A stretch of DNA of 64,000 nt, from IMG/VR virus record IMGVR_UViG_3300028596_000001; one strand, written 5' to 3'. Of this stretch, positions 46,145 through 61,252 are shown one piece after another. How positions within the stretch are numbered: position 1 is the first letter of the stretch; each line of letters opens with the position of its first letter. The translations under genes were made by a program, and so were the position numbers. The DNA is from a virus (lineage: Duplodnaviria; Caudoviricetes). Below the pieces are notes generated by a model, which made no database searches, was not told the DNA's origin, and saw only the letters and a program-made list of their open reading frames with translations.

Positions 46145-46558
46145 TTATAGACGAATAAGCTGGAAGCTTGTCGATTTAAAGCGCATAGAATCTGCGGCTA
46201 TGACTACACAAAGGTGTTCTTTTTCCGGCACCAGGTAAGCAATGTCTTCTTCTACCAGACTGTGGCCAGTGTGGCGATTAATCCAATTGGAGATCATCGC
46301 CTTACTGTGGTTCACGTCGAAGTCGTTACGATACTGCTTGGGAATAGACAAAGACTTCATCCTGCTAAACCCAGACAGATCGACTTTCTCCAGTTCGTAG
46401 TAGAGCGCTTCTTGCCCAGGGTGCTGGATTAGGAAGACCGCATTACCTTTAGCGTTGGTAGAAACGTGTTGAAAGGTGATCTCGTTGATCACCCGAGGGT
46501 CTTTAATGAACAGACCCTCACAGTACTTCTTCTTAATTAAGGCCAGGACCTTGTTCAT
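46145..46558 (-). CDS. Small virion adaptor-like protein
   Basis: 137 aa; YELEKVDL...INRHTGHSLVEEDI...IAADSMRF pattern seen in phiKZ-like virion proteins; ATGA-coupled to the 770-aa gene. Confidence 0.55.
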   Translation of the reverse strand: MNKVLALIKKKYCEGLFIKDPRVINEITFQHVSTNAKGNAVFLIQHPGQEALYYELEKVDLSGFSRMKSLSIPKQYRNDFDVNHSKAMISNWINRHTGHSLVEEDIAYLVPEKEHLCVVIAADSMRFKSTSFQLIRL

Positions 46559-48867
46559 TTAGCGTTCAGGACCTCGTAGTCAGTTGGTGGTACCTCGACC
46601 CAGTTAGGCTTTTCACCCAGCTTGCCGTAGTAGGTATCAGGTATCTCGAGCCACTTGGGCTTGGTGGTCAGATCCCCGTAGTACGTATCCGGGATAATCA
46701 GCATCTTCGGATTGCTACCGAGTTCGCCGTAGTAGGTATCTGGGATAATGAACTCGTTAGGCTCATCGTCCCCTACTTTGCGGAAGTAGGAGTTATCCGT
46801 CATCCGAACAGCGTAGTACCACGGTTTGTCCACACGGTTAACCGGCTTGATGTGACCACGATCGGCTAGCGTTTGCTTTGCCGACATATCCGCCACGATA
46901 GCCGGTCTGTTAGGCGTGTAGACCTTGAGCACTGACTCCAAGTTACGAATGCCGTCCATGTTGCTTTGGACGTTGAGCATCACGTTCTCGAAGTTACCCA
47001 CCAGCTTGTTACCAGGACCAGTCCACCTGCTATCTCCTACAAACGTCTCGTTGAGCATTTCGGTAACCGACACGTCATCGTCCATTTCTTTAATGACGTG
47101 AATGGTGTACGAACTCAGACGGGTCATGATCTCGATCAGATCGTTTTGCTTAACCCGCATGTTAGGTTGGATATTGGTATCCCAGCCAGTTACTCGTTTG
47201 AAGATGTCCCAGGCAAAAGACTTACACTCAGCGGCAGTATAGTCGGAGAAGTCGAAGTTGTAGTCTTTCAACAACTGTTGGTAATTGGTGTATTCACCAA
47301 CCTTGACGATCCCTGACTCGTACACTACCTTAGTCGCGTTCTTTACCCGAGCCCGTTTGTTGAGGTCGTAGAACTGACTGTAGAGTTTCTTGTGCTTCCA
47401 CATCGCCTCGTAAACTTCGAAGGCGTATTGGATCAGGTAATCAGGGGCCACAAAGTTAGCCACTGGGAACCAGATATCCCGGATGTCGAAAGCCAAGTAC
47501 GATGGATAAATGAAGTCCTTACCGCCTACATGAACGATCTCAGCAACTGTAGGTGGCTTGATGCGCATCACGTTCTGGTAATAGACCGGGCAGATGTCTA
47601 CCGGGCTCTTACCGTTACTGTAATCGACCAGGTACTTCCAGATGTGGTAAGCATCCGTAACAGGCAGACGTACTTGTCGGCCGGTCTTAGGGTCGTTAAC
47701 GATTACACGACCTTGGAACTTGTTGTTACTCGCCAGGTAGATCCACTCGTTGTACACCACCGACATCAGGGTATCTGCGTGACGGTTGGTGTAGTCGCGC
47801 ATACTCGACTCGAGGGCTTTGGTAGGCAGCTCCGAGTGGATACTGTTCTTACCGCGCTCTAGGGCGTCTTCCTGGTAGATCGACGTCTGCTTGTAGTTGT
47901 CCTTCGCCAGCGGCTGCTGCTTCATGATCAACTGTTCGGTGTTGATATACGCTGGTTCCCGCCCGTAGTCCTCGATGAGGTTCAGGTGGAGCTTGCGGTA
48001 CAACGGGGTAGGGGTCAGGTCGTCGAGCTGAGTAGCTGTACCTTCTACCATGTCATACTTAGCCAATGGGATATTCGCTACGGTGAGCAAGTTCTCCATC
48101 AGCTTATCAAAGGTGAACATCTGGCCTGGGTTGTTCTTAATCCAAGCGATGTTCCGGAACAGCCACATTACCTGATGACGATTCAGGCTGTTCTTGTACT
48201 TGGAGAAATCCCCGTAGGAATCAATGTGGCTCCAAATATAGAAATCGTGGCTATGGCGGGTGTACATGTGTTCTATGCGGATGGTGTGGATCGCCTTGAT
48301 GATATCCGCGTACAGCAGGCGCACCATTGTAGGTAGGAACAGGTCATCAGTGTAGATGTACTCACTGGTGAGGATCTGGTCCACTTCCGCTTTGATAAAG
48401 TTCTGCAACTGAGGGATCAGCTGCGTCTCGTTCCACATAACCAAATCTTGGTTATAGCGAAGGATCTTATAGTCCTCGGCCTCAATGGTCTCGGTATATG
48501 GGATCGGAGAAAGAATGCCACGAATCAAAGTAGGCTGTGACGGGTACTGCTGGATCAGCCTGCTAAACCAGTAACCCCCCCGAGAATACTCCCGGAAGGT
48601 GGCTAAGTGGTAACGAAGGTTTTCTTTGTTGAAAACAATCTCTTCATCAGTATCCAGTGAGCGGATAACCATCGGGACGTCGGTCTCGTGGTAATCACCG
48701 TTCAAGTTCATGTAGTAGCGCCAGGTACGCTTGTCTTCACTGACAGGAAGTCCGGCGCGCACTAATGCCTGGTTATATCGCTTAGCCAAGGGCTCAATTT
48801 TGATAACCATAGTTCTTGCCAGGGCGAATATGTCCCGGAAGAACTTATCTTTATCGGCATTATTCAT
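46555..48867 (-). CDS. Large baseplate-region structural protein with C-terminal 17-aa repeats
   Basis: 770 aa; WRYYMNLNGDYH N-terminal motif of phiKZ-like baseplate proteins; divergent from portal. Confidence 0.75.
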   Translation of the reverse strand: MNNADKDKFFRDIFALARTMVIKIEPLAKRYNQALVRAGLPVSEDKRTWRYYMNLNGDYHETDVPMVIRSLDTDEEIVFNKENLRYHLATFREYSRGGYWFSRLIQQYPSQPTLIRGILSPIPYTETIEAEDYKILRYNQDLVMWNETQLIPQLQNFIKAEVDQILTSEYIYTDDLFLPTMVRLLYADIIKAIHTIRIEHMYTRHSHDFYIWSHIDSYGDFSKYKNSLNRHQVMWLFRNIAWIKNNPGQMFTFDKLMENLLTVANIPLAKYDMVEGTATQLDDLTPTPLYRKLHLNLIEDYGREPAYINTEQLIMKQQPLAKDNYKQTSIYQEDALERGKNSIHSELPTKALESSMRDYTNRHADTLMSVVYNEWIYLASNNKFQGRVIVNDPKTGRQVRLPVTDAYHIWKYLVDYSNGKSPVDICPVYYQNVMRIKPPTVAEIVHVGGKDFIYPSYLAFDIRDIWFPVANFVAPDYLIQYAFEVYEAMWKHKKLYSQFYDLNKRARVKNATKVVYESGIVKVGEYTNYQQLLKDYNFDFSDYTAAECKSFAWDIFKRVTGWDTNIQPNMRVKQNDLIEIMTRLSSYTIHVIKEMDDDVSVTEMLNETFVGDSRWTGPGNKLVGNFENVMLNVQSNMDGIRNLESVLKVYTPNRPAIVADMSAKQTLADRGHIKPVNRVDKPWYYAVRMTDNSYFRKVGDDEPNEFIIPDTYYGELGSNPKMLIIPDTYYGDLTTKPKWLEIPDTYYGKLGEKPNWVEVPPTDYEVLNAK
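46558..46761 (-). repeat. Four tandem 51-nt (17-aa) repeats
   Basis: PNEFIIPDTYYGELGSN / PKMLIIPDTYYGDLTTK / PKWLEIPDTYYGKLGEK / PNWVEVPPTDYEVLNAK. Confidence 0.95.
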
Positions 48868-58886: not shown

Positions 58887-58945
58887 GCGAAAAAAAAAAC
58901 CTCCCCCTACCCTATCCCCGGTTAGGAGGATAGGGTAGGGAGAAG
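58887..58945 (-). terminator. MCP transcript terminator
   Basis: ccctaccctatcc/ggatagggtaggg stem followed by T10 on the minus strand. Confidence 0.85.
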
Positions 58946-58974
58946 TCTTCACAATGCCAAACGGGTTAAGCCAG

Positions 58975-59054
58975 CCTCTCCACACCATAGGGTCCTGTTA
59001 AGTAAAACTCTTCAGGACCCCGTAGTACGTGTCGGGGAGGCTTACGGGTTTGGG
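58975..59054 (-). other. Putative -1 programmed ribosomal frameshift signal of the MCP gene, with extension ORF
   Basis: Slippery C CCA AAC (59054-59048) in MCP frame, 7-nt spacer, ~66-nt hairpin (59040-58975); -1 frame reads PVSLPDTYYGVLKSFT-stop (TAA 59000-58998). Confidence 0.8.
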
Positions 59055-61252
59055 ACTGGGTTGTTGCCTTCGGTAGCGGTGATCAGCTCGTCCATCTTGG
59101 CAGCGAGACCAACCACTTCCACGCGCTGCTTGGCCAGCTTGGTCAGCAGACCTTCGTCGCCCAGGAACTTGCGAGCGTCGGTGATGGTCAGGGAACCGAT
59201 GATCGGGTTCAGAGCCCAGTGCTTGTAGGTCGGCAGGGTCATCACGACACCGAAGTCCTGCTGATCACGAGTCACGTTACCTTGAACAACGATGTTCTCT
59301 TTCGAGACCACGACACCGACACCGCCCAGAGGGTTGATGAAGTCGGAAGTCGAGTTGTTCTTGGTGACGATCAGGATCTGACCGATCTGGCTGTCGAAGT
59401 TGGTTTCGATAGCGGTCATGTTGACCATCGAGCCCAGAGTACGAGCATCGCCAGTCTTCATCAGGAAGCGACGCAGGTTCTGGTGGACGATGATGTTCCA
59501 CTCAGGAGCGGTGGTACCGCCGTACTCAGCGATGGCAGCCAGGCCGGACTTGGTGGTCAGAGCCGAGGTGATGTCGCTCAGTTCGTTGGTGAACACAGCC
59601 GATACTGCATCGAACACGCCGGTGGAGTCAACCACGGACACCACGTCTTCCAGGGTGATCGAACGGTTGACAGCCGAAGCAGTCACGTAGTGCATGCCAG
59701 GCAGCACGTTCGAACCTTGGTTGTTCGACACGACAGGGTGACCGTCGATCGAGGTGATGTACTTCAGGTGTTCCTGAGCCATGTCGAAGGCTTTCTTCGA
59801 GCACTGGTTGTTGATCGCGACCGACATCTGCTGGATGGCGTAGTCCAGGGAGTCCTGGTTCACGTCTTCCTTGCTGATTGGGTACTTGACCGACACAGGC
59901 GAACCGCGGCGAACCGACAGGTGCTTGTCAGCGTCGAACACTTCGATACGGTAGCCGAAGTTACCGCGCGACAGGTTGTTGACGTTGGCGCGGGTTTTGA
60001 TACCCGATACCGAGCCCTTGGTCAGCAGCTTGATCAGCGCCTTCTGGGTGTCGTCACCACGACCACGGTCAATAACGTTGCCGGTGGCGATGTGGGTCAG
60101 AGCCGAGATGGTCACGTGACCGCCGTTGAGGCGCATGGTGTTCTTCTGGCGCTGGAAGCTGCCCTGCATCGACACTTCGAGCATCGGCTGGTAGCCAGCG
60201 TCTTTGAACGCCTTGAACAGGGTTTCGCCGACACGGTTGCCGTCTTTGTCCAGTACGGCGAAGCCGTTGAACTGGTTCAGCAGCATGCCCAGCTGGCGGT
60301 CGTCCGAGGACTGGCCGTTGGTGGTCGGGTTGAAGGTGTTGTTCGACATCGCTTTGGTATCGATGAAGAAGATCTTCTCGACGCCGTCGATGGTCGCGGT
60401 CAGCTGCAGAGCTTCACCGGTGATCGAGTTGGACTCGATTTCGTCGGTGCTGGTCCAGGCGCGCTGGCCAGGAGCTTGGCAGAGGCCCAGGAAGTTCGGG
60501 ATGACGCTCGGAACTTTCAGGTAGCCAGTCAGGTGGTTCTCGCGGCCGTAGGCGTCAGCTTCCGGGTAGGTAGCAGGCCATGGGGCGATGGTAGCGGCGT
60601 CAACGAACAGCTCGCGAACGTCATCACCGGCGTCTTCCGGGTAAACCGGGTAGATGGCCAGGACTTCGTCTTTGAACATTTCGCCGGTACGCAGCAGGCC
60701 GAAGATTGGCTTCAGCTCGGAAGCTTGCTGCCAGGCGTTGTTGCCGTAGGCATAGTTGCCCAGGCCGGCAGCGCGGACCTTCAGCAGAGCGCCTTCGTCT
60801 TCGTAGCGAACGGTGATGGTCGAGAACAGAGCTTCGGCCGCAGGGGTCTGCAGGTGGCTCTGGGCGTTCAGGGTCATGTTCGCAGCTTTGATGTCTGCTT
60901 CAGAACCGCGGAAGTTCTGCATGGAGAAGCCTTCCAGACCACCAACGGTGGAGTAGAAGTCTTCGGTCTTCTCGACGATCTCACGCAGGTCGCTGGCAGC
61001 GACTTTGTCGGTACGAGCCATGGAGCTCTGGAACGCGGCGTAGGTCTTGTCGTTCAGACGACTGTGCAGCATGCCCATCAGGTTTTGGCTTTCGACGCCT
61101 TGCACCTGGGCGAGACCGACTTTGTCGGCGAACTCGCTGAAGCTTTCGACACCGGCGTGAGCCGACAGTGTCTGGTTTTGTACAGCCGAACGGATCAGGT
61201 GAAAGAGGTTGCCCTCGTTCTTCAATCCGGTTTTGATCTCTTTGTAGGCCAT
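59042..61252 (-). CDS. Major capsid protein (phiKZ gp120-like)
   Basis: 736 aa; strongest codon bias in the window; QTPAAEALF, DQIGQI, HWALNPIIG; G-x-E protease sites; divergent from DnaB as in phiKZ-like genomes. Confidence 0.88.
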   Translation of the reverse strand: MAYKEIKTGLKNEGNLFHLIRSAVQNQTLSAHAGVESFSEFADKVGLAQVQGVESQNLMGMLHSRLNDKTYAAFQSSMARTDKVAASDLREIVEKTEDFYSTVGGLEGFSMQNFRGSEADIKAANMTLNAQSHLQTPAAEALFSTITVRYEDEGALLKVRAAGLGNYAYGNNAWQQASELKPIFGLLRTGEMFKDEVLAIYPVYPEDAGDDVRELFVDAATIAPWPATYPEADAYGRENHLTGYLKVPSVIPNFLGLCQAPGQRAWTSTDEIESNSITGEALQLTATIDGVEKIFFIDTKAMSNNTFNPTTNGQSSDDRQLGMLLNQFNGFAVLDKDGNRVGETLFKAFKDAGYQPMLEVSMQGSFQRQKNTMRLNGGHVTISALTHIATGNVIDRGRGDDTQKALIKLLTKGSVSGIKTRANVNNLSRGNFGYRIEVFDADKHLSVRRGSPVSVKYPISKEDVNQDSLDYAIQQMSVAINNQCSKKAFDMAQEHLKYITSIDGHPVVSNNQGSNVLPGMHYVTASAVNRSITLEDVVSVVDSTGVFDAVSAVFTNELSDITSALTTKSGLAAIAEYGGTTAPEWNIIVHQNLRRFLMKTGDARTLGSMVNMTAIETNFDSQIGQILIVTKNNSTSDFINPLGGVGVVVSKENIVVQGNVTRDQQDFGVVMTLPTYKHWALNPIIGSLTITDARKFLGDEGLLTKLAKQRVEVVGLAAKMDELITATEGNNPVPNP

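Follow-up and report, generated by a model that had tools for sequence, protein, structure and literature searches.

Recoding at the 3' end of genes for structural proteins has been described in several phages. In gene 10 of T7 and T3 a -1 frameshift near the 3' end gives the capsid proteins 10A and 10B; the T7 extension is about 50 residues long and contains no known partner motif. The gp5A and gp5B proteins of the Lactobacillus phage A2 represent a further case, and in the Listeria phages PSA and A118 both the capsid and the tail protein are extended by recoding (Cps-L and Tsh-L). Ig-like modules added by frameshifting have also been published. The signals of the lambda G/GT and dnaX type consist of an X XXY YYZ heptamer and a structure downstream of it, with a short spacer in between.

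The locus analysed here is the 3' end of a major capsid protein (MCP) gene, located in a stretch of viral DNA of 64,000 nucleotides which is referred to as the window in its full length. Similarly to T7/T3 gene 10, a -1 shift in the last MCP codons would give a minor, C-terminally extended capsid protein, the extension of which would lie outside. The capsid family is unrelated in sequence to that of T7, however, and the extension is here a motif of about 15 residues common to baseplate proteins. The locus shares with A2 and the Listeria phages the probable recoding at the 3' end of a structural gene, and with PSA and A118 also the presence of an added module on both head and tail. It differs from them in that only the MCP would be recoded, the motif of the baseplate proteins being encoded without any shift and in tandem copies, as well as in host range and phage type, since it belongs to a jumbo, nucleus-forming lineage. 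The putative slip signal has the heptamer, short spacer and downstream structure of lambda G/GT and dnaX, except that the A-site codon is AAC or AAT (Asn) in place of AAG (Lys), that the site abuts the stop codon, and that the product would be a tag and not a new domain or a truncated protein. Unlike the Ig-like modules, this tag is a linear motif of 9 residues, which is also found in tandem arrays. Capsid frameshifts as such have been described before, as outlined above; the novelty lies in the predicted product, the short linear motif of which is reused on baseplate proteins.

The MCP open reading frame of the window (736 aa) matched PF25620 (PhiKZ_MCP) with an E-value of 2.9e-139 over residues 85-699 and phrog_3231 with 3.3e-172, in agreement with a full-length profile match, and its final approx. 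37 residues form a variable linker outside the Pfam model. The gene ends with GTC CCA AAC CCG TAA, the stop codon being at 59044-59042 of the minus strand. As the earlier note had read from these letters, C CCA AAC (59054-59048) is in frame and has the X XXY YYZ register; it overlaps with another heptamer that is likewise in register, A AAC CCG at 59051-59045. A slip at C CCA AAC, at A AAC CCG or at C CCG followed by the stop would lead to the identical product. After such a slip the MCP of the window would read PVSLPDTYYGVLKSFT-stop (the longer -1 frame readout is ...PNPVSLPDTYYGVLKSFT), and the fusion would end in ...NNPVPNP-VSLPDTYYGVLKSFT, with a gain of the 15 residues VSLPDTYYGVLKSFT beyond the normal C-terminus and with the -1 frame stop at 59000-58998. 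When all six frames of the 64-kb window were scanned, the hexapeptide PDTYYG was found in the MCP extension and in the three repeat copies of a baseplate-type protein only, so every element of what the earlier note had observed, the match between the -1 peptide and the baseplate repeats included, proved to be correct. The features are collected in Table 1.

Table 1. Positions of the capsid and baseplate features in the window.
Feature	Position	Strand	Remarks
phiKZ gp139 homologue, DUF7208, 315 aa	45185..46132	-	candidate receptor for the tag
137-aa protein directly after the wedge gene	46145..46558	-	AF2 pLDDT 90.4; match to the N-terminal half of gp127
Baseplate wedge protein, 770 aa	46555..48867	-	phrog_3222, 3e-216; phiKZ gp128 homologue
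C-terminal add-on of the wedge protein	46561..46761	-	three 17-aa tandem repeats, each with IPDTYYGxL; beyond the family profile
Intrinsic terminator of the MCP transcript	58890..58945	-	20-bp stem and T10; distinct from the hairpin
Long hairpin, putative frameshift stimulator	58967..59044	-	predicted fold; encloses the extension ORF and its stop
-1 frame extension	58998..59048	-	CCC GTA AGC ... ACT TAA
Overlapping second candidate slip site	59042..59051	-	A AAC CCG; C CCG then TAA stop (P-site Pro slip)
Major capsid protein gene, zero frame	59042..61252	-	736 aa, phiKZ gp120 type
Slippery heptamer C CCA AAC	59048..59054	-	X XXY YYZ register; P site CCA, A site AAC

The region behind the stop codon is predicted to fold into a hairpin of 78 nt with a free energy of -38.5 kcal/mol (z = -3.1 against dinucleotide shuffles), the stable stem of which starts from 59041, 6 nt past the first heptamer. 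The layout of heptamer, spacer and hairpin suggested beforehand is in agreement with this predicted stem, and so is the claim that the hairpin is separate from the terminator, which was located at 58945-58890. In a search of Rfam no family matched the hairpin.

In order to follow the -1 frame peptide in related MCP genes, as had been proposed as a check, a set of 26 distinct sequences was compared, consisting of the window, EL, RisingSun, FishSpeaker and 22 metagenomic sequences, the latter obtained from 29 IMG/VR loci; the whole set represents about 15 lineages. The C-terminal halves of the MCPs of the IMG/VR relatives were 61-88% identical. RisingSun/Joad and EL are the closest public phages to the window, and their -1 extensions read RLIPSTNYGRLG-stop and RRSVSPANYGRLEYPELP-stop, respectively. 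In all 26 sequences the -1 frame has stayed open for 10-16 codons beyond the stop and encodes Y-G-x-L there, usually in the form [I/L]-P-x-T-[Y/D/N]-Y-G-x-L. The Pseudomonas phage vB_PQ1 (PQ516283.1, L091) was kept out of the counts because of its fragmented MCP, which is annotated as six pieces, most likely as a result of assembly or indel errors; it still carries an EL-type -1 extension, SVSPANYGRLEYPELP. The claim of a programmed -1 frameshift that adds a peptide shared with the baseplate is thus strongly supported by the comparative evidence, and some ribosomes very probably slip by -1 at the end of the MCP gene in the EL/RisingSun clade, adding about 15 residues.

The slip site itself was found to be more variable than the extension. 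An X XXA AAY heptamer is present in frame in 18 of the 26 distinct sequences, in the form of C CCA AAC in most of them, A AAA AAC in L004-L006, G GGA AAC in L008-L010 and C CCA AAT in L023 and FishSpeaker. RisingSun/Joad and EL have C CCA AAC in frame just 5' of the MCP stop. The codon in front of the heptamer varies in the residue encoded (V, D, N, P, A) and keeps C in its third position; one lineage has there CCC, which makes up 1 of 244 Pro codons. The Pro codon of the C CCA AAY heptamer is always CCA, a codon that accounts for 28% of the Pro codons in these genes. The remaining 8 sequences end in GTA AAC CCG TAA or GTA ACC CCG TAA; the former fits A AAC CCG and the latter, found in 4 sequences, fits no canonical tandem site. 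The canonical heptamer to which the earlier note had pointed is thus present in 18/26 sequences and lacking in 8/26, and it is not universal. Every sequence has either X XXA AAY or C CCN followed by a stop, that is, at least one plausible slip site. X XXA AAC is not known as a high-efficiency frameshift site in bacteria.

The subgroup lacking X XXA AAY (L011, L013-L016, L020, L021 and L030) has tandem zero-frame stops, TAA TAA in general and TAA TGA in L030. Its hairpin is shifted 3 nt downstream, which agrees with a slip site moved to AAC/ACC CCG.

Since 8 of the 26 sequences are without X XXA AAY, the Pro codon next to the stop may serve as the slip site instead of, or besides, the canonical heptamer. 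Taken to its end, this would mean that the same product is made by a single-tRNA slip of the P-site Pro tRNA on C CCN at a slow stop codon (a 'shifty stop'), and that X XXA AAY is secondary or is used only where C CCN-stop is missing. C CCN is indeed followed by TAA or TAG in 17 of 25 sequences, among them all 8 without X XXA AAY; the four GTA ACC CCG TAA sequences, having no canonical tandem site, keep the extension under purifying selection, and their hairpin begins 6 nt past CCG. On the other hand, a slippery Pro codon next to the stop is missing from RisingSun, EL, L022-L024, L026, L028 and L029, thus these eight sequences must use C CCA AAY, and in RisingSun the -1 frame opens exactly at C CCA AAC. 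We regard a general slip at the stop codon as possible and on the whole unlikely; the preferred reading keeps both routes, tandem slippage on the heptamer and the P-site slip.

Since EL, RisingSun and G002 are without a phage-encoded tRNA-Asn(GUU), frameshifting does not depend on it, and a shifty tRNA of this kind as a requirement was rejected. This tRNA, the reader of the A-site codon of the heptamer, is encoded in G000 (G000:C1:166849-166924) and in G001.

A long hairpin enclosing the extension is predicted in every lineage, and it begins 0-5 nt past the stop codon and 5-9 nt past the relevant slip site. Of 25 sequences in which the 3' region was folded, 24 gave z values between -2.4 and -8.1, L026 being the one that folds no better than its shuffles. 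The outer stems differ strongly between the lineages, yet they pair in each of them, e.g. UCCCUUCAACC/GGUUGAAGGGA in RisingSun and GCCUCAUCC/GGAUGGGGC in L004. An ungapped shuffle test of the outer stems, which is a crude one, was weak for many single sequences, and the stems of the lineages could not be aligned by MAFFT for counting pairs.

The protein with the PDTYYG repeats had been called a baseplate protein. Its open reading frame of 770 aa is similar to PHIKZ128 (tblastn, 30% identity, 8e-77), and in the cryo-EM atlas of phiKZ (2026) gp128 makes up the baseplate wedge together with two gp87 subunits, as a heterotrimer (PMC13250141). Since phiKZ gp128 is a wedge protein by cryo-EM, the baseplate label holds on the basis of homology, and the 770-aa protein would be located in the wedge of the virion of this phage too. 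Besides its three full repeats, the C-terminal add-on contains a degenerate fourth one, VPPTDYEVL.

The distribution of the motif was surveyed in ten genomes, by six-frame regular expression scans in G000, G001, G002, EL and RisingSun and by targeted searches in G003-G007. The MCP extension was found in all ten. The wedge protein carries the tag in 9/10 genomes, with a single copy in RisingSun and an array of three or four in each of the remaining eight. In 10/10 genomes the motif is also found at the C-terminus of a conserved protein of 194-219 aa, with two paralogues in RisingSun, and one more copy is present on gp197 of RisingSun, a virion protein of 583 aa. The motif family is therefore wider than that of the earlier note, to which the 194-aa protein, RisingSun gp197 and the wedge copies across the genomes have to be added. 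When 23 homologues of the 194-aa protein were aligned, no other part proved to be as well conserved as the motif, and P182, T184, Y186, G187 and L189 are invariant. The wedge protein of G003 (L037, G003:C1:199521-201638) ends at 709 aa without a tag repeat; this genome retains the MCP extension and the tagged 194-aa protein.

The variants of the motif tend to be common to the proteins of a genome. In EL both the MCP extension and the wedge protein have NYGRL, in G006 the form YG[RQ]L-x-YP[ED]L occurs across the MCP extension, the wedge and the 194-aa protein, and YYG is found in both the MCP and the wedge of G000, G001, G002 and G007. In these four genomes the YYG of the MCP agrees with the wedge rather than with the 194-aa protein. 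An identity of 13 nt (ACGTACTACGGGG) could be observed between the MCP extension (59019-59031) and the second wedge repeat (46672-46684); together with the YYG match of MCP and wedge it could be due either to an exchange of sequence or to a constraint acting on both.

The AF2 model of the 194-aa protein has a pLDDT of 93.9, and about 88 in the tag region. Its best match by VIA-align was 9xqd chain 0 (Z 6.3, 126 residues). This chain is PHIKZ127, encoded directly after gp128 in phiKZ. The 137-aa protein, the gene of which directly follows the wedge gene in the window, matched the same chain with Z 7.8, the next best match being 5.4. The models of both proteins thus appear to share the fold of the N-terminal half of gp127, with Z values that are modest. 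The gp127 match came from VIA-align alone, as Foldseek found no match for the 194-aa protein in the PDB, and when the profiles of the 194-aa and 137-aa families were compared, both against one another and against phiKZ gp139 and gp26, no sequence relation emerged. In the 137-aa protein an internal SIPKQYRNDFD is invariant (IPATYRNDFD in G003), the start of which resembles the tag (I-P-x-x-Y).

The periphery of the phiKZ baseplate offers a counterpart for most of these components. There, gp139 dimers tie the outer, fibre-bearing periphery to the gp128/gp87 wedge, and gp127 caps the gp139 band of the outer baseplate (PMC13250141). Homologues of phiKZ gp139, gp130, gp157, gp26 and gp27 are present in the clade; for phiKZ gp126 no PDB structure was found. 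The tagged wedge protein and the predicted folds of the 137-aa and 194-aa proteins resemble the phiKZ periphery, in contrast to which phiKZ gp128, gp26 and MCP are without the motif. The motif and the putative recoding are specific to the EL/RisingSun clade, as far as can be judged from the genomes compared.

One paralogue of the 194-aa protein per genome ends differently, in ...P[RK][FYW][ND]G-x-[FYH]-x-[YA]DG[TS][LIV]-x-Y-stop. It was found at G000:C1:5242-5820 (+), in EL at 163313-163906 (-), as gp201 in RisingSun, and at 84720-85361 in G001 and 66819-67409 in G002. This different, likewise conserved C-terminal motif suggests a second type of plug.

On the basis of these data the following mechanism is proposed. 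A fraction of the ribosomes finishing the MCP gene would slip back by one base; this could be a tandem slip on X XXA AAY, which is C CCA AAC in the window, or a slip of the P-site Pro tRNA on C CCN with the stop codon in the A site, and the long hairpin 5-9 nt downstream would probably promote the slip. The shifted ribosomes would read about 15 further codons, giving a C-terminus with [I/L]-P-x-T-[Y/D/N]-Y-G-x-L, and the tag, attached through a flexible linker, would hang from the centre of the capsomer. In phiKZ the C-terminal MCP arm is external and touches the outer vertex protein gp244 (PMC11297242), and since this arm lies outside, the MCP extension would, by analogy, be displayed on the capsid surface. 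The motif would act as a plug for one receptor protein of the virion periphery, so that the baseplate would hold this receptor and its cargo in a fixed stoichiometry, and the head in a number set by the efficiency of frameshifting. In phiKZ, gp26 cross-links the periphery via its inserted C-terminus (PMC13250141), so the use of peptides as plugs is well established for baseplates of this type. That baseplate proteins bear the short motif as well, there without a shift of frame and in tandem copies, speaks for a receptor common to head and baseplate. The sequences themselves show the layout of the signal, the selection for coding in the -1 frame, the census of the motif and its confinement to one clade; the slip itself, its frequency and the docking function are what we infer from them. 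The proposal as a whole, i.e. the -1 slip, the tagged MCP and the plug for a shared receptor, is given a probability of about 0.8. The earlier suggestion that a minority of the MCP subunits is tagged, for docking of accessory fibres or decorations, is consistent with these observations.

A more elaborate form of the proposal can be put forward as a tentative one, falling somewhat short of even chances. It would be a plug-and-socket system in which the 9-residue plug is used in tandem on the wedge, once on the small proteins with the gp127 fold and, by recoding, on the capsid, so that proteins of the baseplate periphery or fibres would also be placed on the head, in numbers set by the frameshift efficiency. 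When the complex of the 194-aa protein (residues 1-176) with the -1 peptide of the MCP was predicted, the protein itself reached a pLDDT of only 33, a value too low for the model to bear on binding in either direction. A split-domain catcher was also considered and found no support: the 137-aa neighbour of the wedge and the 194-aa protein are modelled as complete two-domain folds (pLDDT 90-94), and no incomplete domain lacking strands to be supplied by the tag was seen among these models.

The 194-aa gene (G000:C1:27359-27943) is situated immediately downstream of a gene for a GroEL-like chaperonin of the EL gp146 type, the pair (G000:C1:27359-29920) being 11-14 kb ahead of the start of the window. 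This synteny was observed in G000, G001, G002 and EL and not in RisingSun (4/5 genomes).

The tag might be real and have no part in virion docking, serving instead as a signal for assembly or quality control, recognised by the chaperonin or an assembly factor, or as a self-associating peptide. Such a role would be in line with the chaperonin gene adjoining that of the tagged protein in G000, G001, G002 and EL and with the presence of the chaperonin in all five genomes checked (these four and RisingSun), and the AF2 monomer, with the tag at a pLDDT of about 88, leaves room for the tag to pack on its own protein. However, a folding signal on a mere fraction of the capsid subunits makes little sense, the tandem copies on the wedge suit multivalent docking better, and OBP, which has a chaperonin, has no MCP extension. 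Therefore we consider a role in assembly improbable and rate it below docking, the function assumed in the preferred reading.

It had also to be asked whether there is recoding at all. The match of the motif might be due to chance or to a repeat at the DNA level, and the hairpin might be a stabiliser of the mRNA 3' end or a part of termination. The window alone gives one hexapeptide match together with the 13-nt identity; by our own estimate the chance of a shared hexapeptide between about 15 codons and the 64-kb window is, taken alone, approx. 0.03-0.05, and hairpins are common after highly expressed genes. The relatives of the window tell a different story. The entropy at the Tyr, Gly and Leu codons of the extension is 0.30, 0.00 and 1.44 bits in codon positions 1, 2 and 3, respectively; Gly is encoded by GGG, GGA, GGT and GGC, and Leu by six codons. 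In a close subgroup of 7 sequences, only 2 of 13 codon variants (15%) changed the residue in the -1 frame; the proportion was 86-92% in the other frames, with 12 of 14 variants for the zero frame and 12 of 13 for the +1 frame. The motif is thus conserved at the protein level and not at the DNA level. This codon-periodic conservation over about 15 lineages, with many synonymous changes, speaks against the absence of recoding, and because of these comparative data a chance match is no longer an explanation.

The outgroups point in the same direction, as they possess the terminator without hairpin or extension. In the MCP genes of Miami, pTD1, PS1, OBP and LAh10 no heptamer, hairpin, extension or motif was found in any frame, and the stop codon runs directly into the terminator. 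The tagged 194-aa protein is absent from the same five phages, and the wedge proteins of pTD1, PS1 and LAh10, the three that were checked, bear no tags. Since these outgroups lack the parts, the extension, the hairpin and the tag system arose together, on this comparison of sequences, in the EL/RisingSun/FishSpeaker clade. That the locus involves no recoding is accordingly very improbable, and the preferred reading remains a -1 slip with an added tag.

The MCPs of the outgroups end in the zero frame in ...G[KQ]LP-stop or ...VP-stop (DDGQLP in Miami, EAGKLP in pTD1, GKELPIVKVP in LAh10), and in EL and L028 the last residues of the -1 extension are YPELP. The resemblance may indicate an older C-terminal motif, or it may be a coincidence.

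In RisingSun, L023, L024, L029 and L011 the -1 frame is open from no more than 3-5 codons ahead of the stop and contains no start codon; in RisingSun, L023 and L024 the distance is three codons, and the opening coincides with the heptamer. Because of this late opening without a start codon the extension is no separate gene, and because the same offset was found in three isolate genomes and many independent metagenomes, sequencing error is excluded. The chance that the extension is reached by another route, i.e. an independent small ORF, transcriptional slippage, for which the A6 run of L004-L006 could give an opportunity, or an artefact hiding an in-frame C-terminus, is thus negligible, as the late opening is seen in several lineages, the homopolymers are mostly no longer than 3-4 bases and the frame offset is the same in the three isolates and in the 22 independent metagenome sequences.

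The literature searched contained no description of capsid frameshifting for jumbo or phiKZ-like phages, nor for EL or RisingSun, in accordance with what the earlier note had stated for the phiKZ-like ones. The public records of EL, RisingSun and the Shewanella phage FishSpeaker contain plain MCP genes with no recoding annotated, and the mass spectrometry of RisingSun lists peptides for annotated gene products only (PMC6034870). EL, RisingSun/Joad and FishSpeaker are cultured phages, EL being especially well studied. Since their capsid genes are annotated without recoding, a component of their virions has probably been missed so far. A receptor shared by head and baseplate would be a simple way for a virion of very large size to place one accessory protein at two sites in different copy numbers. 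If the plug-and-socket system is true, the giant capsid would gain adhesion or tethering sites of its own, and the tag may represent a natural display or anchoring peptide on the capsids of jumbo phages.
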